Part shown: piece by piece, positions 49,931 to 58,307 of the stretch
How the letters are laid out: each line of letters begins with the position of its first letter
Numbering within the stretch: position 1 is the stretch's first letter
NCBI GenBank assembly: GCA_050950505.1
Contig: JBMNHS010000001.1
Location: 800,001-864,000, forward strand
DNA: 64,000 bases
Reading direction: 5' to 3'
DNA from: Candidatus Methanomethylophilaceae archaeon
GTDB lineage: Archaea; Thermoplasmatota; Thermoplasmata; Methanomassiliicoccales; Methanomethylophilaceae
Program-made: the position numbers and the translations under genes
The notes under the pieces: generated by a model
The model's database searches: none
What the model was told of the DNA's origin: nothing
Seen by the model: only the letters and a program-made list of their open reading frames with translations

Positions 49931-50518
49931 GTGAATCAAGCAAAACCTGAAGTAGTACCCATAGCCGCACCCCCGACGGGCAAAAAGAACATACTGATTG
50001 TAACCAACGATTCGGAAGTCACGACTTCCAACAAACTGGAATCCGCCGGCGAACTTTACGGAGGCCGTGTGACGGAGATACGGGAATTCGTGAAGAGTCT
50101 GGAAAGTGAATTCGGCGAAGAGGGTGAAGATACCATGAACGTGTCCTTCGGACTCATAACCACATTCTTCGGATTCGTTCCCAGCAACTATTCCATATCC
50201 AAATACAAGTACGTGATGGGCAACAAGGAAGAGTACCAGATCACTCAGAACGAACGGGATTACGCCGGCAGACTGGAATATGTTTCCAGAGGTTTCGACA
50301 AAGTCATTCTCTGTGTCCCCAAAGAAATGTTCAGGATTCTGGTTGACAACGATGCTTTGCACAAAGGAAAAATCATAGCTGTGACTTCCAAAGAATTCAG
50401 AGGGCTCTGCGAAGAGAACGACTGGATTTTCCTTGAAAGAAAAGGAGCCAGACTCGGAAAGAAGAACGCTGCGAAAATCAAAGACTATCTCAGGGATTTC
50501 GCCGAAGATAAATCTTGA
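49931..50518 (+). CDS. Hypothetical protein, possibly DUF6884/YaaA-like
   Basis: SAGELYGG and LITTFFGFVP...ISKY echo that family's pattern; RBS GAGGTGA. Confidence 0.55.
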   Translation: MNQAKPEVVPIAAPPTGKKNILIVTNDSEVTTSNKLESAGELYGGRVTEIREFVKSLESEFGEEGEDTMNVSFGLITTFFGFVPSNYSISKYKYVMGNKEEYQITQNERDYAGRLEYVSRGFDKVILCVPKEMFRILVDNDALHKGKIIAVTSKEFRGLCEENDWIFLERKGARLGKKNAAKIKDYLRDFAEDKS

Positions 50519-51173
50519 TTCTTTCTTTGTCGTCTTTGCTCACACGGAGCGATTCACGGATTTTCCGGACGGTCATATTCTGAATCTCCGGATTCAATTT
50601 GCCGGATTTCAGAACATTTTCCGTTTTATCGGGATATTCCACATAACAGAAGGACAAGGTCCAAGCCGCTCCCATTTTGTAATAATAGCCGTCATGGCTG
50701 TTTGACGCAATCCGATCGAGAACTTTGTCGATATTTTCGTCGTCTATGAATTTGAAAAGCATCATAACGACGGAAGTGCGCATTTTGAATTCCTCGCCGG
50801 AAGACAGCCACTCGTCGCACAATCCCCATAACGGGACGTTCGCTTCCGGGACATATTTCCAATCGTTGCACAGAAGATCGCAAACCGCCCAGTTTTCGAT
50901 ACAGGGGACGAAATTTCTTGTAAGGCCGATGCGTTCTTCGAAAGAAATGTCCGCATTGGCTACAATCAGGGCTTTCAACAAATATTCTTCATGATATTCG
51001 GAATCGGTTTCAAGAAAACTCCGCCAATTCTCTTTCATCAGTTCAGATGCCGTCTTTCGGAGTACGGGCATCCTCACTCCAAGTATGTTTTCCGTGCCGG
51101 GCAGCAGCCTGCGGTTGAATTCCGCATATTCCGCGTCAACGTTGTGATACAATTCTTTCCGAAGGGAGTTCAA
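50490..51173 (-). CDS. AlkD-like DNA alkylation repair glycosylase
   Basis: LGVRMPVLR, IENWAVCD, YYYKMGAAW. Confidence 0.88.
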   Translation of the reverse strand: MNSLRKELYHNVDAEYAEFNRRLLPGTENILGVRMPVLRKTASELMKENWRSFLETDSEYHEEYLLKALIVANADISFEERIGLTRNFVPCIENWAVCDLLCNDWKYVPEANVPLWGLCDEWLSSGEEFKMRTSVVMMLFKFIDDENIDKVLDRIASNSHDGYYYKMGAAWTLSFCYVEYPDKTENVLKSGKLNPEIQNMTVRKIRESLRVSKDDKERIKIYLRRNP

Positions 51174-51646
51174 AGAAATTCAGCCTCAAGATTCAGCAAC
51201 TTCTTTTTCAGAATGCTTCCTCCGCCGTAGGATCCGATTCCCCCGGAAGACGGCACGACCCGGTGGCAGGGTATGAAAATCGGAATGGGGTTCTTGCCGC
51301 ATGCCGTGCCCACGGCACGGTAGGAACCGGGATTTCCCAAATTTTCCGCAATTTCGCCGTAAGTAACGGTCACTCCGTAAGGAATATCGGCAATTTCAGA
51401 CCAGACGGATTTTTGGAAATCCGTTCCGTTGCATGCAAACGGAAGATTAAACTCCTTTCTCCGGCCGGTAAAATATTCTTCCAATTGGGATGCGGCTTCG
51501 GAAATAATATCGGTTTCCTTATCTTCGACTATCGGCAGGTTATACGTCGGAAGATACAATCCGCAAATATTTCCCTCACCGTCTTCGCTTATGCTTATTT
51601 TTCCGAATATCGTGGCATAAGTGAATGCGTACTTGTCCTTTATCAT
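51170..51646 (-). CDS. ogt: Methylated-DNA--protein-cysteine methyltransferase
   Basis: GTDFQ, IPYG, RAVG, PCHRV. Confidence 0.95.
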   Translation of the reverse strand: MIKDKYAFTYATIFGKISISEDGEGNICGLYLPTYNLPIVEDKETDIISEAASQLEEYFTGRRKEFNLPFACNGTDFQKSVWSEIADIPYGVTVTYGEIAENLGNPGSYRAVGTACGKNPIPIFIPCHRVVPSSGGIGSYGGGSILKKKLLNLEAEFL

Positions 51647-51693
51647 GTTCCTCTTCCTGAACATTTATCTTTTATTTACATATTAAGTGTTTC

Positions 51694-52614
51694 GTGATTA
51701 TATGCGCAAGCAGACGTACGGATGTGCCTGCTTTTCACTCCGAATGGATGATTAACAGATTGAGGGCGGGACATGTCCTGGTCAGAAATCCCGTTGCCGA
51801 AAACGTAGTTTTCAAGGTAGATCTGAGTCCTAAAAGCGTAAGCTGCATTTACTTCATGACGAAGAATCCACGCCCCATGATACCCTTTCTCGATGAAATC
51901 GAAGAAATGGGACACAACGTGATTTTCCAGATAACCGTGAATCCTTACGGCAAGGACCTGGAACCCGGAGTTCCCGACATCGTGACCGTCGCCGACGGTT
52001 TCAAAGAAGTATCGGAAAAGATTGGAAAAGGAAGAACGGTGTGGAGATACGACCCCGTTCTTTTCGACGGGAGGTACAACAGATCCTATCATGAAAGAAA
52101 ATTCAGGCTGCTGTGCGAAGAGTTTTCCGGATACACCGAACGGTTCATATTCGGTTTTCTTGACGTTTATGACAAATTCGACAAATCCGATTATTCGGAA
52201 AGACTGTCGGACGCTTCCGAATCCGACAGAAACTGGTTTATGGACATGGCGGGGAAAACCGCAAAAGAATTCGGAATATCCGGAAGTTTATGCTGTTCCG
52301 ACGAATCTTATCCAGAGTACGGGATAGATAACAGGGGATGCATAGACAGGGGGACCCTGCTGTCTTTGGGGATTCCTTTCGAAGATGTTCCCGGCAACAC
52401 CCGCAAAGGCTGCAGATGCGTCAGGAACATCGACATCGGCGCTTACGACAGCTGTCTGCACAACTGCGTGTACTGTTACGCAAACAGCGGCACGTCCCGG
52501 GGAAGGGATTCGAAAGTCTACGATCCGACTTCCGAAATGCTTCACGGTTCGCTGAAGAGCACCGATGACGTAAGAGTCCTGTCGGAAAGGCGTTCACGCC
52601 TCACCGATTTCTGA
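51694..52614 (+). CDS. DUF1848 family radical-SAM-like protein
   Basis: ASRRTDVPAF, TKNP, WRYDP, DIGAYDSCLHNCVYCYA. Confidence 0.9.
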   Translation: MIICASRRTDVPAFHSEWMINRLRAGHVLVRNPVAENVVFKVDLSPKSVSCIYFMTKNPRPMIPFLDEIEEMGHNVIFQITVNPYGKDLEPGVPDIVTVADGFKEVSEKIGKGRTVWRYDPVLFDGRYNRSYHERKFRLLCEEFSGYTERFIFGFLDVYDKFDKSDYSERLSDASESDRNWFMDMAGKTAKEFGISGSLCCSDESYPEYGIDNRGCIDRGTLLSLGIPFEDVPGNTRKGCRCVRNIDIGAYDSCLHNCVYCYANSGTSRGRDSKVYDPTSEMLHGSLKSTDDVRVLSERRSRLTDF

Positions 52615-53577
52615 GGCTCTGTCCAACCCCGTTTCAGTCTTCATTCTTTTCTTGGAGAACAGAACCGAATCCATGAACACGACCCAGATGATTTCAACAA
52701 CTATCGACGTTGCGATTGCAACCATCGCGACGGAGGCCAAATTGCCGGGCAGCGTGGCGACGCACAAAGCTATGGCAATACCCTTGTTGCGGTATGACAC
52801 CATGAGGACGTCGGTGACCCTCTGAGCCCATCCGATTCCCAATTTCTTTTCGACGACTTCGACACCGGTTCCAACCACGAAAGTTCTGATTGCGGAAATC
52901 ACCGCAAACAGTGCGATGGGCGCGAACACCGGAGGGAATTTGGTTGAACTTACGGAAAGTATAACAAGGAACGAGATGAACAGATTCATCATGATTCCCA
53001 TGGTATCCCTGTCGATTTTTACCTTTGTCAGCAATCTCGACAGTACCAACGGAACCCCGATGATTTCTATGACGGTGATGAACACCCCCCTCATTTCCAC
53101 GACTTCGCCCAAAAGAATCCAGATTACGAAGGGAATCCAGACAAGAGAGAATATGTAAGTCAGAATTGTGCCTCTTCCGGCATGTTCCATATCTCCTCTC
53201 AAGGTATAGGAAAGAGGAACGACGGAAGCCGCGAAGGGCGCGGCGGCGATGAACACAAGACCCATCGCTTCGTTTTTCCAGCCTGTGTTCTTCATAAGCA
53301 GGAATCCTATGATGGGGATTATTGCGGCGACCACAAGGCCCAACAGCACCGCCCGGGTGACCGAACGGCTGTATCTCACGGGATTGAGGTTCCTGTAGGG
53401 AATGCGGGACAGGGATATCGTCATCATTATGGCGAGTACCAGCACCGTTATGTCTGCCCGTATGCCCGCAGTAAGAACACGATCCGGAAACCATCCCAAA
53501 AAATTTATGATAAGGGATATGGCCAAGCCGAGGGATAACATAATCGCGCTGCTTGCCAATATTTTTTTGATACGCAT
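52594..53577 (-). CDS. BASS/Acr3-superfamily Na+ symporter
   Basis: About 10 TM segments; AAAPFAASV and YRNKGIAIA crossover motifs. Confidence 0.7.
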   Translation of the reverse strand: MRIKKILASSAIMLSLGLAISLIINFLGWFPDRVLTAGIRADITVLVLAIMMTISLSRIPYRNLNPVRYSRSVTRAVLLGLVVAAIIPIIGFLLMKNTGWKNEAMGLVFIAAAPFAASVVPLSYTLRGDMEHAGRGTILTYIFSLVWIPFVIWILLGEVVEMRGVFITVIEIIGVPLVLSRLLTKVKIDRDTMGIMMNLFISFLVILSVSSTKFPPVFAPIALFAVISAIRTFVVGTGVEVVEKKLGIGWAQRVTDVLMVSYRNKGIAIALCVATLPGNLASVAMVAIATSIVVEIIWVVFMDSVLFSKKRMKTETGLDRASEIGEA

Positions 53578-53661
53578 GACACAATCGGAAGTATGCCAGA
53601 CGTATAACCGTTTTGTACCGTCAGAACGGCAAATTTTTCGGAAAGTCTTATTTAACCCGTA

Positions 53662-54609
53662 ATGCTCACATTCAACCAGATGTCAGGTATTGTTCCGGTC
53701 AAAGCAGGATGGTACAACGCGTTCAGACCCTGGACTCTTCACGGTGCGATAGTGCCGATAGTGCTGGCCGGATTCGTCGCGTTGCACGACGCCGGTTTCA
53801 ACTGGAAAATTCTCGACTGGTTCATGTTCATCCTAGTGCTGATCGGAGGCATACTTCTGCAGTCCGCGGCCAATCTTCTGAACACTTACGGGGATTTTGA
53901 GAAAGGAACCGACACCGTCGAAAACCATATTCGGTCTCCTGAACTTGTTACGGGAGAGTTAAGGTCAAAAGACGTCAGGAACGCAGGATTCCTTTGTGTC
54001 GGCATAACCGCACTGATAGGTCTCGTGCTTCTGTGGTACAGCGGATGGTGGCTTCTTCTGATAGGCCTCGCGGGAATCTTCGGAGTGGTCATGTACACTC
54101 TGGGCGTCTCTTACAAATATTTGGGCCTGGGTCAGATAAGTACGTTCTTTCTGATGGGAATCCTGATGCCCGTGGGAACATACTACACCATGTCCGGAAC
54201 AATGACCTGGGTTCCGATTCTCCTCGGACTGCCCAACGCATTCTTCCTGACCGGGGTTCTTTCCGGAAACGAAACCCGGGATTACTATTCGGACAAGGAA
54301 GCCGGAGCCAATACCATGTCCGGCCATATGAGCTACGAAGGGGCGCTGACTTACTACAGGACGATAAATTTCATCGGTTATCCGATTCTTCTGATTATCG
54401 TTGCGGTCGGGGTTGTTCCCGTAACGTGCCTGCTGGCCGTATTTGCGCTGTACGATTACAGGAAACTGTATCTGAACTCAAAAACCGAACCCATGGACAA
54501 AACCTCGGGATTTTTGTTGGTTCCGAGAGCCTTCACCCACAATTGGCATTTCGGTGCATTGCTCGCAATAGGTTATTTAATCGGAGTCGGTCTTCCGTTG
54601 TTGATTTGA
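53662..54609 (+). CDS. menA: MenA/UBIAD1-type 1,4-dihydroxy-2-naphthoate prenyltransferase
   Basis: RPWTL, QSAANLLNTYGDFEKGTD, YT...YKYLGLG, NETRDYYSDKEAG. Confidence 0.82.
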   Translation: MLTFNQMSGIVPVKAGWYNAFRPWTLHGAIVPIVLAGFVALHDAGFNWKILDWFMFILVLIGGILLQSAANLLNTYGDFEKGTDTVENHIRSPELVTGELRSKDVRNAGFLCVGITALIGLVLLWYSGWWLLLIGLAGIFGVVMYTLGVSYKYLGLGQISTFFLMGILMPVGTYYTMSGTMTWVPILLGLPNAFFLTGVLSGNETRDYYSDKEAGANTMSGHMSYEGALTYYRTINFIGYPILLIIVAVGVVPVTCLLAVFALYDYRKLYLNSKTEPMDKTSGFLLVPRAFTHNWHFGALLAIGYLIGVGLPLLI

Positions 54610-55349
54610 TGAAAGACAACGAGCAACTCGGGATTCAGTTCGAAGGCAAAGACGTCTACGTGAAAGACGTTTTCACCGAGATTTCTTCGTATTATGACGA
54701 AATGAATGACATTATGTCCATGGGTATGATCAAACGCTGGCATAAGTTCATGATGAAGAAACTCGGAGATCTTGAAGGCAAAAAATGCCTTGACGTCGGA
54801 ACCGGCACCGGCGAGATAGCCTTCCTCATGGCTTCACGGGGCGGGAACGTTACGGGAATAGATCTGACTCCCGCAATGATTGAACTCGCGGAGAAGAAGA
54901 TGACCGAGAAGAATCTGCCGAAAGCTGACCTGATGGTAGGCGATGCCCTCGATCTTCCTTTTGAGGAGGGTACTTTCGACTGCGTTACGTCGGGATACAT
55001 GCTGAGGAACGTCACCGACATACCGAAAGCCGTCAGCGAGATGTGCCGCGTCCTCAAATCCGGCGGTATATGCGTGGTTGCCGAATTGGCAAGACCCACG
55101 AACCGTTTAATTCGTCCCTTTTACAATTTTTACATGAACCGGATTATTCCCCGTTACGGACGGAAATACGACAAGGGCCAATCCATAGACGGACGGGAAC
55201 CCGCTTACGATTGGCTGACGGCGTCCATAGAAGGATTCCCTTACGGAAAAGAAATGACTGATATTTTCCTGGACGCCGGTTTCGACGAAGCAAGATTTTT
55301 CGTGAAAAGTTTCGGTGCCGTAAACATATACGAAGGAATCAAAAAGTGA
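54609..55349 (+). CDS. menG: UbiE/MenG quinone C-methyltransferase
   Basis: VFTEISSYYDEMNDIMSMG, LDVGTGTG, LRNVTD, AYDWLTASIEGFP; TGATG coupling to menA. Confidence 0.85.
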   Translation: MKDNEQLGIQFEGKDVYVKDVFTEISSYYDEMNDIMSMGMIKRWHKFMMKKLGDLEGKKCLDVGTGTGEIAFLMASRGGNVTGIDLTPAMIELAEKKMTEKNLPKADLMVGDALDLPFEEGTFDCVTSGYMLRNVTDIPKAVSEMCRVLKSGGICVVAELARPTNRLIRPFYNFYMNRIIPRYGRKYDKGQSIDGREPAYDWLTASIEGFPYGKEMTDIFLDAGFDEARFFVKSFGAVNIYEGIKK

Positions 55350-57020: not shown

Positions 57021-58307
57021 ATGCATAATGCGGATGAAGTGGTCAGCCGGCCGGAAGGGACGGGCATCGTAAACCTGACTCTGCAAGACTGCCGGTCCTC
57101 TAAAATTTTGGAATACTATTCAGCGTTCGCCAACTCCGGCGGCGGAGAAATAACCGTTACATGTCCGAGCAGATTCGAATCCGACAAAGACGAGGAGATA
57201 TCCCTTCTCAGAAAAAGGTTGCAGGATGTTTCCAACATCAGTCCGAATCCCGTTATGAGTTCCCATTTCAGGAAATCCTCCGAAGGTTTCATTTTGGACG
57301 TTCCTTACGCGGACAGGTTGTTCCGTCCGGTTTATCTCGACGGTTCACCTGAAACGGGAACTTTCGTTTGGAAAGACTGCGACATATGCATTTGCGGAGC
57401 GGAACAGGTCAGATCTATGATTAGGGACAGATCCGACGGGAACGACGGCAAAACCATGGAAGATTTCGACGCGTCGGTGCTTAATACCGTATCCCTCGGG
57501 GATTTCAGATCCCGGCTGAAGAAAGACCATATATGGAGTTCTCTGGACGTCGAAAAACTGATGACTTCCTCTCTCGCGACCGTCAACCGTGAAAATCGGC
57601 TCGTACCCGCTGTTGCGGGCATTCTTCTGTTTTCGGATCATCACACTATAACGTCCCGGTTCAAAGGATACAGATTAAGGTATTCCGACGGCAGATGGGC
57701 AATCGATTCGGAGGACGGAAGATGGTCCGGCAACATACAGGATTTCCGTTCCGAAGTATCGGCCTGCATATCTTCGATATATGGCGATATGTCCGAATCC
57801 GTGATGGAACTTGTGACCAACGCGCTCATACATTCCGATTATCACTTGGGCGACGGAGTTTCCGTTATCTACGGCAACAGCGTTTTGAAAATAATCAATT
57901 ACGGAATGTTCAGATCCTCCGTCGAAGAATCAATCAAAGGAAAAAGAGACCGCAGAAATCCGATTATTGCCAATATCCTGAGTTCCGTTTCCACATTCAG
58001 GGGACTGGGCAACGCAATCGTGCGGTTGAATGAAAACGGTTACCGCACCGATGTGTCCCAGAACTTGATTGAAGGTAAAGTCACCGTTACCGTGAAACCC
58101 TCCAAAATCAAAGATATTGAGCTCAGCATTTATGCAAAGAGAGTTTTGGAATTGTTGATTGCGAACAAAGATATGGTCATCGACGAGATATCCGAAAAGA
58201 TCGGTCTCGGCAGGCGTCAGACGGAACGGTATCTTTCCGAATTGAAGGAAAAAGGAATTCTGAAGAGGGAAGGCAGCAGGCGTTCCGGAAGATGGAAAAT
58301 ATTATAA
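57021..58307 (+). CDS. Divergent AlbA_2 (Schlafen-like) + HATPase_c_4 + HTH protein
   Basis: YSAFANSGGG, AGILLF, ELVTNALIHSDY, RNPIIA, C-terminal HTH LKREGSRRSGRW. Confidence 0.75.
   Translation: MHNADEVVSRPEGTGIVNLTLQDCRSSKILEYYSAFANSGGGEITVTCPSRFESDKDEEISLLRKRLQDVSNISPNPVMSSHFRKSSEGFILDVPYADRLFRPVYLDGSPETGTFVWKDCDICICGAEQVRSMIRDRSDGNDGKTMEDFDASVLNTVSLGDFRSRLKKDHIWSSLDVEKLMTSSLATVNRENRLVPAVAGILLFSDHHTITSRFKGYRLRYSDGRWAIDSEDGRWSGNIQDFRSEVSACISSIYGDMSESVMELVTNALIHSDYHLGDGVSVIYGNSVLKIINYGMFRSSVEESIKGKRDRRNPIIANILSSVSTFRGLGNAIVRLNENGYRTDVSQNLIEGKVTVTVKPSKIKDIELSIYAKRVLELLIANKDMVIDEISEKIGLGRRQTERYLSELKEKGILKREGSRRSGRWKIL

Follow-up and report, generated by a model that had tools for sequence, protein, structure and literature searches.

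A MenA-UbiE gene pair with a divergent BASS-family transporter as a candidate module for quinone precursor salvage in Methanomethylophilaceae

Why should methanogens that are thought to conserve energy without quinones keep genes for the last steps of quinone synthesis? In the accepted energy model of the Methanomassiliicoccales, a complex-I-like enzyme delivers electrons to HdrD without a membrane-soluble carrier, and the quinone-tail-end genes of most members have remained unexplained since 2014. In the text of Borrel et al. 2014 considered here (PMC4153887), ubiA (DHNA octaprenyltransferase) and ubiE of three Methanomassiliicoccales were listed under 'liposoluble electron transporter synthesis', and Fpo was proposed to have a liposoluble acceptor. 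This idea did not survive in the later consensus (PMC7374477; PMC10673518), and the complex is described as working without use of a membrane-soluble carrier (PMC10673518). The gene pair itself is not new, as is evident from that 2014 text and from the databases, which call the MenA-type gene a DHNA octaprenyltransferase. To call the electron carrier unrecognised, as in a preliminary description of the locus studied here, is therefore not warranted.

The locus lies in a 64,000-nucleotide stretch (the window) of a Methanomethylophilaceae genome of 1.327 Mb that is 99.63 % complete. We considered where the aromatic ring could come from, how the pair reached these archaea and what its product might serve for.

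Layout and conservation of the locus

The open reading frames, their TGATG coupling and the head-to-head arrangement of the transporter and MenA genes (Table 1) had been recognised in the preliminary description and were all confirmed by the ORF coordinates, the gap of about 85 bp measuring 84 bp. In TGATG (54607-54611) the MenA stop codon TGA (54607-54609) overlaps the UbiE start codon ATG (54609-54611). According to the alignment, related MenA proteins begin at the residue aligned to M7, which suggests that the true MenA start may be at 53680; the gap would then be 102 bp. Six related loci, when aligned, partly conserve a CTTATTTAA-like box located some 10-30 nt ahead of the MenA start. When the divergent promoter region was searched for a regulator site or a shared operator, only AT-rich boxes were found.

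Table 1. Features of the transporter-menA-ubiE locus (positions within the window)
Feature	Position	Strand	Remarks
BASS/SBF-family transporter gene	52594-53577	-	327 aa; ORF and Pfam SBF
Divergent intergenic region between transporter and menA-ubiE pair	53578-53661		84 bp; AT-rich TATA-like boxes
MenA-type UbiA-superfamily prenyltransferase gene	53662-54609	+	315 aa; start possibly ATG at 53680
UbiE/MenG-type C-methyltransferase gene	54609-55349	+	246 aa; start overlaps MenA stop

The order of a transporter gene diverging from MenA and UbiE was retained in all 12 related loci fetched, and a MenA-type gene was present in 147 of the 173 other genomes of the family. This implies that the layout has not arisen by chance.

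Two short contigs overlapped the locus: one of 230 nt, from a library labelled metatranscriptomic, falls inside the transporter gene (53109-53338), and another, of 274 nt, falls within ubiE and comes from a run flagged 'RNA? probably DNA'. Neither shows transcription, as both are available as contigs only and may stem from carried-over DNA.

The prenyltransferase, the methyltransferase and the source of the ring

The MenA-type protein scored 96.8 bits with Pfam UbiA (PF01040; cut-off 34.2). Ten of its 12 NCBIfam matches, the top five among them, were to MenA-type models, yet all stayed below the cut-off; every curated MenA equivalog threshold was missed (TIGR00751, 93 vs 102.15; NF004751, 137 vs 264; the rest lower), and the MqnP and UbiA models gave only about 20 bits. 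With E. coli MenA as the tblastn query, this gene was the only match in the genome (29.5 % identity over 227 residues, E 1e-17; 26 % over the full alignment). Both Asp-rich motifs were in register with E. coli MenA, and residues N71, D78, G82, D84, N203, R206, D207, D211 and T218 were invariant in a seven-sequence alignment that included it. The closest solved relative was UBIAD1 (8djk, E 6e-20), an enzyme known to act on menadiol rather than DHNA. MenA relatives are able to accept other head groups. A tree was rooted on E. coli UbiA; 111 of its 122 rows were picked as the best query matches, and it does not cover the full superfamily. In it, the family clade (SH-aLRT 100) was sister to a Peptococcaceae-like protein (97) inside the radiation holding E. 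coli MenA, and the tree sisters P0126, P0130 and P0139 exceeded the TIGR00751 cut-off.

Membership of the UbiA superfamily is common to this protein and to DGGGP synthase, and the finding could in principle be an annotation artefact, with the protein being DGGGP synthase or a similar membrane-lipid enzyme. However, the genome has its own DGGGP synthase (matches to NF009521 and NF009523) elsewhere, at C1:626585-627343, beside a PcrB-like ORF that we read, from its sequence and without a family scan, as GGGP synthase; the DGGGPS models did not match the MenA-type protein at E<=0.01, and the tree placed it among the MenA proteins. We rejected the lipid-enzyme reading, to which we attach hardly any probability. 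The earlier assignment to MenA rather than to the DGGGP synthase or UbiA clades is thus supported at the level of sequence.

The methyltransferase scored 194.1 bits with Pfam Ubie_methyltran (cut-off 20.1) and passed the subfamily model TIGR01934 (207.2 vs 158.35 bits), whereas the demethylmenaquinone-methyltransferase equivalogs NF001244 (197.9 vs 216) and NF001243 (168.1 vs 235) were not reached. It directly follows MenA in the 12 related loci and in two Peptococcaceae loci, with 47-49 % identity to the latter. Such tight coupling is, as far as gene order and sequence can tell, the signature of the steps from DHNA to demethylmenaquinone and menaquinone; it argues that the head group arrives unmethylated, as DHNA and not as menadione.

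The preliminary description had noted that naphthoquinone ring-synthesis genes are missing from the window, and this extends to the whole genome. The MenB model had no match, the only MenD match was a ThDP enzyme far below the cut-off (67 vs 244 bits), and the MqnA/MqnD family PF02621, which made up the futalosine-pathway search, was not found either. In tblastn, E. coli MenF, MenH, MenB, MenC and MenE gave nothing at E<=0.01, and MenD only the same weak ThDP-enzyme match. Thus, the terminal enzymes are present and the searched ring-synthesis enzymes absent in a nearly complete genome, the pattern of menA- and menG-only organisms, and this is most simply explained by the import of a precursor such as DHNA.

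Accordingly worded as a pathway, a soluble ring precursor from neighbouring bacteria, most likely 1,4-dihydroxy-2-naphthoate (DHNA), would be taken into the cell, with the divergently transcribed BASS-family transporter as the candidate importer. The MenA-type enzyme would add a polyprenyl tail with loss of CO2 to give demethylmenaquinone, which the translationally coupled UbiE/MenG would methylate to menaquinone. That the three genes form such a precursor-salvage module for a membrane naphthoquinone is, in our judgement, an evenly balanced proposition.

The pair might instead prenylate and methylate some other aromatic head group, either taken up or synthesised by an unrecognised route, to give a product other than menaquinone, e.g., a lineage-specific redox lipid with a role like that of methanophenazine. 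The missed MenA cut-offs and the menadiol-using UBIAD1 as best solved relative would fit this. Moreover, most of the order carries another, only weakly MenA-like 'type b' prenyltransferase, and MenB exceeded its cut-off in just 1 of 261 genomes of the order and was absent from the other 260, a hint of a non-classical head group. On the other side, bacterial proteins above the MenA equivalog cut-off surround the protein in the tree, neither MenA motif is disrupted, the coupling to UbiE/MenG is kept at the bacterial sister loci as well, and no candidate head-group genes were seen adjoining the pair. We therefore consider another head group rather unlikely.

Bacterial origin of the pair and its association with the transporter

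Outside the archaeal family, the nearest relatives of the pair were found in Peptococcaceae MAGs (40 % identity, same menA-ubiE order). Together with the tree, this shows at the sequence level that the MenA-MenG pair is of bacterial origin. At the Peptococcaceae locus with flanks (L032), an NMT1-type ABC transporter precedes the pair and a MatE gene follows it. MenB did not exceed its cut-off in the Peptococcaceae genomes, and our transporter query found no ortholog in the two genomes, both of unknown completeness. No loci were found for P0126, the second-closest outside relative.

The MenA-like prenyltransferases of the order fall into three types, and nearly every reasonably complete genome has one besides the lipid enzyme. 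In most Methanomethylophilaceae the bacterial pair has apparently displaced the older 'type b' gene, and another genus (g31) has, judging from its phylogenetic position, a second, independent MenA-MenG pair.

The transporter exceeded the Pfam SBF cut-off (PF01758; 43.4 vs 24.3 bits). As a single sequence it reached no better than E 0.59 against solved chains, and only a profile of 11 orthologs gave a match, to ASBT_NM chain 3zuy_A at E 3.8e-8. The Atlas model of the protein had TM scores of 0.77-0.95 to BASS clusters. These matches and the predicted structure assign it, as a divergent protein with an ASBT-like fold, to the BASS/SBF (bile acid:sodium symporter) family.

The preliminary description had tied the transporter to the pair by position only and would have counted a lack of synteny of the symporter in relatives against its proposal. 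It is syntenic in most of them, and co-occurrence now adds to position: a transporter match was present in 144 of the 147 MenA-bearing family genomes, and a strong ortholog in none of the 26 lacking MenA. As for genomes beyond the family, only the four of genus g31 had strong orthologs (E 1e-73 to 1e-75); they are also the only ones with the phylogenetically separate second pair. The physical linkage is nevertheless broken in one clade. By a manual tally of the first 63 genomes listed, 42 have the transporter no more than about 1 kb from MenA. The two genes are unlinked in g31 and also in part of genus g15, where 4 to 100 kb separate them or they are found on different contigs. The neighbours of the unlinked copies (in genome G124 and in g31), namely defence genes, riboflavin genes and an aminotransferase, were uninformative. 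Habitat may confound the co-occurrence.

These observations bear on whether the transporter imports a quinone head-group precursor, as we infer, or is a functionally unrelated bile-acid or organic-anion carrier that neighbours a quinone-making MenA-UbiE pair through conserved gene order. The latter would agree with a published reading, in the text considered here, of a BASS cluster enriched in a host-associated clade as bile-acid tolerance (PMC7883539). It would also agree with the generally conserved local order, the flanking DUF1848, Ogt and M18 peptidase genes being likewise syntenic in most loci, with the unlinked copies, with the different transporters at the bacterial sister loci, and with the fact that adjacent genes can be lost together in a single deletion. 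Against it, a strong ortholog is missing from every MenA-lacking family genome, and such orthologs occur outside the family only in the genus that acquired a separate MenA-MenG pair. In addition, the transporter and the pair have a short divergent promoter region in common, and the labels of the runs holding the locus DNA name bioreactor, digester, landfill, wastewater or sludge and not the gut; in such habitats bile acids would not be expected. An unrelated transporter is thus a serious contender, albeit one that we would on the whole bet against.

Possible redox role and comparison with known systems

The genome encodes fpoABCDHIJ..LMN; 128 bp behind it lies a prenyl synthase gene, with a GGR-family reductase gene next in line. 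At -5/-4 before DDxxD the synthase has A-T, which is also the case for E. coli IspB; it is read from this as a long-chain type and would probably supply the tail in the proposed salvage. FpoD keeps a His and a Tyr aligning with HPxxHG and DRxxY of E. coli NuoCD, and the Fpo-like complex was the only quinone-type site found in the genome among the enzymes searched. We therefore prefer a use of the product as a lipophilic acceptor at this site. Cytochrome bd, NrfD, a b-type cytochrome (PF01292), NarI/HdrE and VKOR were looked for in the genome and not found. With no quinol-oxidising partner among these, the quinol would be left without a recognisable oxidase.

Five MenA-lacking relatives, two of them 99 % complete, retain FpoN and the Fpo-linked prenyl synthase, which implies that neither Fpo nor this synthase depends on MenA. 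An acceptor role at Fpo would accordingly be accessory or replaceable, not indispensable. Moreover, the midpoint potential of menaquinone, at about -74 mV, is more positive than that of CoM-S-S-CoB, at about -140 mV, and menaquinone would be unfavourable as a carrier from Fpo to HdrD; its poor suitability for reaching the heterodisulfide also favours a different head group. Thus, of the preliminary proposal of DHNA import and quinone formation, the biosynthetic part gained from the MenA-type identity, the UbiE coupling and the absence of the ring pathway, but a core respiratory role is weakened by the relatives that keep Fpo without MenA and by the lack of a quinol-oxidising partner.

If menaquinone were made from a scavenged precursor, the energy model would have to accommodate a carrier, or an additional redox route at the least, and these methanogens would rely on bacteria that produce quinones. 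They are of importance for methane from ruminants and digesters and for the removal of trimethylamine in the human gut. The family's only isolate requires Eggerthella lenta filtrate or rumen fluid for growth (PMC10673518). In the most far-reaching form of the proposal, Methanomassiliicoccales use a prenylated membrane quinone, the Fpo-like complex reducing menaquinone made from scavenged DHNA; the BASS protein takes up DHNA, as the first importer of this compound, and DHNA is the heat-stable factor of the filtrate and rumen fluid for Methanomethylophilus alvi. We consider this combination unlikely. Should DHNA replace the filtrate, other family members could become culturable, and the BASS-family candidate would, if confirmed, be the first DHNA transporter.

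Our searches of the literature on Methanomassiliicoccales, Methanomassiliicoccus or Methanomethylophilus and quinones yielded only Borrel et al. 2014 as relevant; PMC6147122, PMC10804542, PMC11362671 and PMC13108260 matched through author names, PQQ, medium recipes or general statements. The genes of that work (ispA, ubiA, ubiE; PMC4153887) include the same kind of pair in the same order, with adjacent ubiA and ubiE accessions in two of the three genomes, and the pair was likewise proposed as the source of the acceptor of the Fpo-like complex. Unlike here, the text considered did not ask for the source of the ring, separate the three MenA-like types or mention the transporter. The present analysis contributes the interpretation of the pair as a salvage system and its derivation from bacteria, the second independent pair, a transporter ortholog that accompanies both pairs throughout the order and is missing wherever there is no MenA, the apparent displacement of an older MenA-like gene, the long-chain-type synthase behind fpo and the link to the Eggerthella-derived growth factor required by M. 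alvi.

Among the known systems, Group B Streptococcus is a studied case of DHNA salvage. From human gut genomes, DHNA use with unknown transporters was predicted for microbes that have menA and menG alone (Ravcheev & Thiele 2016, PMC4746308). Salvage is also implied by the DHNA-dependent growth of gut bacteria, for which the compound serves as a growth factor (Fenn et al. 2017, PMC5738691); the consulted text of both papers states that no DHNA transporter is known, and a phrase search of the literature found none. The locus shares with these bacteria a terminal two-enzyme module without ring synthesis, a MenA-type protein within the bacterial radiation and life in dense anaerobic communities containing quinone producers. 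It differs in that the host is a cytochrome-free methanogenic archaeon without a recognisable quinol-using reductase or oxidase, that a BASS-family gene is attached, and that the module came from bacteria and apparently took the place of an older MenA-like gene. With E. coli MenA or human UBIAD1 and UbiE/MenG it has in common the Asp-rich motifs, the best solved match and a UbiE protein above the subfamily cut-off, whereas the MenA-type protein, a putative enzyme of this kind, is divergent and below all MenA equivalog cut-offs. The transporter resembles ASBT-type symporters (ASBT_NM, PDB 3zuy) in its SBF score, profile match and predicted fold, but it is very remote from them, its neighbours are quinone genes and not bile-acid genes, and its habitat labels are not those of the gut.

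The three-gene module and the identity of its enzymes

The transporter, prenyltransferase and methyltransferase genes of the preliminary description were confirmed by ORF coordinates and Pfam matches in a genome (G000) of 1,326,829 bases in two contigs that is 99.63% complete, the window being C1:800001-864000. The TGATG coupling, in which the stop codon of the MenA-type gene overlaps the UbiE start, and the head-to-head arrangement of the transporter and MenA-type genes, with 84 bp between them, were confirmed as well. This layout, whose conservation the same description had proposed to check, was kept in 12/12 fetched related loci, with transporter identity going down to 46%. The flanking genes appear unrelated to the three genes of the module. 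Upstream of the module lies a DNA-repair-like cluster (50490-52614), of which the DUF1848 gene is syntenic in 10 of the 12 related loci.

Features of the module, its surroundings and the other loci discussed (unprefixed positions refer to the window; C, contig; L, fetched locus)
Feature	Position	Strand	Remarks
DNA alkylation repair protein	50490-51173	-	upstream of module
O6-methylguanine methyltransferase	51170-51664	-	upstream of module
DUF1848 protein	51694-52614	+	upstream; 3' end overlaps transporter 3' end by 21 nt
BASS/SBF transporter	52594-53577	-	327 aa; Pfam SBF 43.4 bits, above cut-off
MenA-type prenyltransferase	53662-54609	+	315 aa; Pfam UbiA 96.8 bits, above cut-off
TGATG overlap	54607-54611		MenA-type stop and UbiE start
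UbiE/MenG methyltransferase	54609-55349	+	246 aa; Pfam Ubie_methyltran 194.1 bits, above cut-off
M18 aminopeptidase			downstream of module
428-aa protein	57021-58307		sole family match a C-terminal winged-helix HTH_24; remainder without family
fpo operon	L020:2929-15603 (G000:C1 about 581929-594603)		outside window; fpoA, B, C, D, H, I, J .. L, M, N
DGGGP synthase gene	L022:3552-4343 (G000:C1 about 626552-627343)	-	outside window; in-frame TAG at about residue 96
Second NuoH-like gene	L019 (G000:C1:1113620-1117525)		outside window; PF00146, 135 bits; away from fpo operon
MenB gene of G070	G070:C9:10737-11528		411.8 bits
Peptococcaceae menA-ubiE locus	L032:1459-7075		sole Peptococcaceae locus with flanks
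Second MenA-MenG pair, G026 (genus g31)	L033:1453-3068		MenA-type gene overlaps MenG
Type b gene, G100	L035:1435-2436		directly after DUF1848 gene, before radical SAM gene

Ten of the 12 NCBIfam matches of the prenyltransferase, including the top five, were to MenA-type models, all of whose cut-offs were missed (TIGR00751, 93 vs 102.15 bits; NF004751, 137 vs 264), while the MqnP and UbiA models gave only ~20 bits. The E. coli MenA sequence (annotated K-12 record) matched no gene in the genome other than this one (29.5% identity, E 1e-17), and its two Asp-rich motifs line up with N71, D78, D84 and N203, R206, D207, D211 of the window protein. The best solved relative was UBIAD1 (8djk, E 6e-20). 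The methyltransferase scored above the MenG/UbiE subfamily cut-off (207.2 vs 158.35) and did not pass the equivalog models.

The alternative that the window gene is the archaeal lipid enzyme, DGGGP synthase, was excluded by a separate DGGGP-synthase-like gene. Exactly two UbiA-family genes are encoded in the genome; the one outside the window has matches to DGGGP-synthase models and adjoins a PcrB-like ORF that, judged from its sequence rather than from a family scan, we read as a GGGP synthase. Together with the MenA-type NCBIfam matches, this separate gene upholds the MenA-type assignment of the preliminary description. The in-frame TAG of the DGGGP synthase gene falls between the two Asp-rich motifs; it could be read through in this pyrrolysine-using lineage, the alternatives being an error in the sequence or a gene split in two.

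Probable bacterial origin and distribution in the order

A search of 1.84 billion representatives returned one cluster for the archaeon's own family (f1; 54% identity) and then proteins at no more than 40%. The closest protein outside the family, P0125, maps to two Peptococcaceae MAGs, in which menA is again followed by ubiE (47-49% identity to the window UbiE). In a 122-protein tree with E. coli UbiA as root, 111 of whose members were picked as best matches to the query, the f1 MenA-type clade (SH-aLRT 100) was sister to P0125 (97); this was a quick search under one model without bootstrap support. The radiation that holds this clade also includes E. coli MenA, which agrees with the MenA rather than the lipid placement. 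Three tree neighbours of the family clade pass TIGR00751, and the named members near it are bacterial (Kiritimatiellia, Verrucomicrobiota, Calditrichota). Because of this placement beside P0125 among bacterial proteins, we read the MenA-UbiE pair as acquired from bacteria. In the Peptococcaceae locus an NMT1-type ABC transporter (binding protein, ATPase, permease) lies 52 bp before menA-ubiE and a MatE efflux gene follows; MenB was not found above cut-off in the two Peptococcaceae genomes, and the locus is possibly a bacterial operon for import, prenylation and methylation.

Among the 261 genomes of the order Methanomassiliicoccales, the MenA-type gene was detected at E<=1e-20 in 147 of the 173 other f1 genomes and in none of f3 (0/4), f4 (0/10), f5 (0/1) and f7 (0/47), with weak matches only in f2 (1/1) and f6 (3/24). 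All four genomes of g31, a genus of another family, carry a second MenA-type gene, phylogenetically separate from that of f1 and distant from it in the tree; this gene was found in 0/257 genomes elsewhere in the order, and in G026 it overlaps a MenG above the demethylmenaquinone-methyltransferase cut-off (268 vs 235).

A further UbiA-family gene, here type b, was present in every genome of f2 (1), f3 (4), f4 (10) and f5 (1), in 19/24 of f6 and in 37/47 of f7. It is weakly MenA-like (67.7 bits on NF004751), and its nearest named Atlas clusters bear the name DHNA octaprenyltransferase (score 0.93), which is a lead only. Within f1 it is rare (38/173) and commoner where the MenA-UbiE pair is missing: when the two genes were cross-read by hand, type b was present in 20 and absent from 127 genomes with MenA, and present in 18 and absent from 8 genomes lacking it. 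Of the eight genomes that lack both genes, G075 is 99% complete and the other seven reach 84% at most. Genus g13 has MenA in 0/8 and type b in 7/8 genomes, and g16 in 1/6 and 6/6, respectively. In G100 type b adjoins a DUF1848 gene, and in the window it is the DUF1848 gene that neighbours the transporter. Judging only from which genomes carry which gene, we take the bacterial MenA-MenG pair to have displaced an older gene of MenA-like type. This implies that some prenylated aromatic compound would be close to universal in the order.

Proposed supply of the ring precursor, and the transporter

The absence of naphthoquinone ring-synthesis genes, first noticed in the window, extends to the whole genome for MenF/D/H/B/C/E and the MqnA/MqnD family, the latter being the part of the futalosine route covered. 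The MenB model and the MqnA/MqnD family had no match, the MenD model found only a ThDP enzyme (67 bits vs a cut-off of 244), and tblastn with E. coli MenF, MenH, MenB, MenC and MenE gave nothing at E<=0.01. MenB was above cut-off in one of the 261 genomes of the order, G070, whose estimated contamination is 3%; the gene may lie on a foreign contig or be a true exception. We consider salvage, in which an imported precursor, most likely DHNA, is converted to demethylmenaquinone by the MenA-type enzyme and to menaquinone by UbiE/MenG, the best-supported reading of the module, with even chances of being correct.

The transporter is a genuine, though remote, member of the BASS family. The single sequence matched no solved chain better than E 0.59; a profile built from 11 orthologs matched ASBT_NM (chain 3zuy_A, E 3.8e-8), and its Atlas model, a predicted structure, aligned to BASS clusters with TM 0.77-0.95. 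In the first 63 genomes listed after G000, tallied by hand, the transporter gene was within about 1 kb of MenA on the same contig in 42, 4 to 100 kb away in four (G141, G178, G120, G124) and on a different contig in 17. A transporter match was present in 144/147 MenA-bearing f1 genomes (the three others are at most 79% complete) and a strong ortholog in 0/26 MenA-lacking ones, five of which gave paralog-level matches only (E 1e-16 to 1e-20); in these counts co-loss of neighbours may represent one deletion, related genomes are not independent and habitat may drive both traits. Outside f1 the matches were weak (E>=1e-34), save those in the four g31 genomes (E 1e-73 to 1e-75), where the gene is not adjacent to the second pair. 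Since strong orthologs outside f1 occur only in g31, the sole holder of the second MenA-MenG, the transporter ortholog accompanies each of the two pairs, which were acquired separately.

The symporter link, originally proposed from position, is favoured by the conserved layout and by co-occurrence, but the genes lie apart in part of the tallied genomes and in g31, and we regard the transporter-MenA link as suggestive. A different role is offered by a published study, which found enrichment of a BASS cluster in the host-associated clade and interpreted it as bile tolerance (PMC7883539). No run containing window DNA carried a gut label; the labels were bioreactor, digester, landfill, wastewater, sludge or plain metagenome. 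Of these runs, 18 contained 0.76 or more of the sampled words and 11 were flagged as possible sources, and all of them together came from 15 studies. The BASS protein is a candidate importer of the ring precursor, a tentative assignment that we hold to be somewhat improbable.

Possible quinone partners, the growth factor and earlier work

Behind the fpo operon, across a gap of 128 bp, lie a polyprenyl synthase gene (P0002) and a geranylgeranyl-reductase-family gene. The synthase gene also adjoins fpoN in relatives, some of which lack MenA. The positions before the first DDxxD set prenyl chain length; P0002 has A-T at -5/-4, the same as the octaprenyl synthase IspB of E. coli, and appears to be of the long-chain type, while in the other synthase of the genome (P0003) position -5 is Phe and the scores with GGPP-synthase models are higher. 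In an alignment with E. coli NuoCD, the HPxxHG His and the DRxxY Tyr, residues that contact quinone, are conserved in FpoD. Besides Fpo, the quinone-type partners looked for in the genome (cytochrome bd, NrfD, PF01292 cytochrome b, NarI/HdrE and VKOR) were not found, and CCG-domain (Hdr-type) proteins number four. The second NuoH-like gene may be part of another membrane-bound complex, e.g., an energy-converting hydrogenase.

The module may have a respiratory role, against which one thermodynamic argument counts: the midpoint potential of menaquinone (about -74 mV) is more positive than that of heterodisulfide (about -140 mV). FpoN and the P0002 ortholog were kept in 5/5 of the MenA-lacking f1 genomes G075 and G100 (both 99% complete), G092, G093 and G099, adjacent in three of them, which is evidence against a core role; four of the five have type b.

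Methanomethylophilus alvi Mx-05, the only isolate of the family, requires a growth factor that passes a 0.2-µm filter, survives autoclaving and is supplied by Eggerthella lenta culture filtrate or rumen fluid, and M. luminyensis does not need it (PMC10673518). In another study E. lenta served as helper strain to Gordonibacter pamelaeae, an organism that DHNA and MK-4 induce (PMC5738691), and this makes DHNA a candidate for the M. alvi factor.

The gene pair itself is already known and annotated. Public records of relatives are titled 'DHNA octaprenyltransferase', and Borrel et al. 2014 place ispA, ubiA (under that same name) and ubiE under 'Liposoluble electron transporter synthesis', give neighbouring accessions for the ubiA and ubiE of 'Ca. 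M. alvus' and propose a carrier accepting electrons from Fpo (PMC4153887); according to later texts, Fpo interacts directly with HdrD (PMC7374477) and the complex uses no membrane-soluble carrier (PMC10673518). Our literature search on DHNA transporter, uptake or import found no paper. Fenn et al. 2017 showed DHNA to be a growth factor and stated that a transporter had yet to be described (PMC5738691), and Ravcheev and Thiele 2016 predicted that menAG-only microbes use DHNA, with transporters still to be found (PMC4746308). To this work the present analysis adds the logic of salvage in a methanogen, the origin of the pair in bacteria and its double acquisition, the transporter co-occurrence, the displacement pattern and the growth-factor hypothesis.
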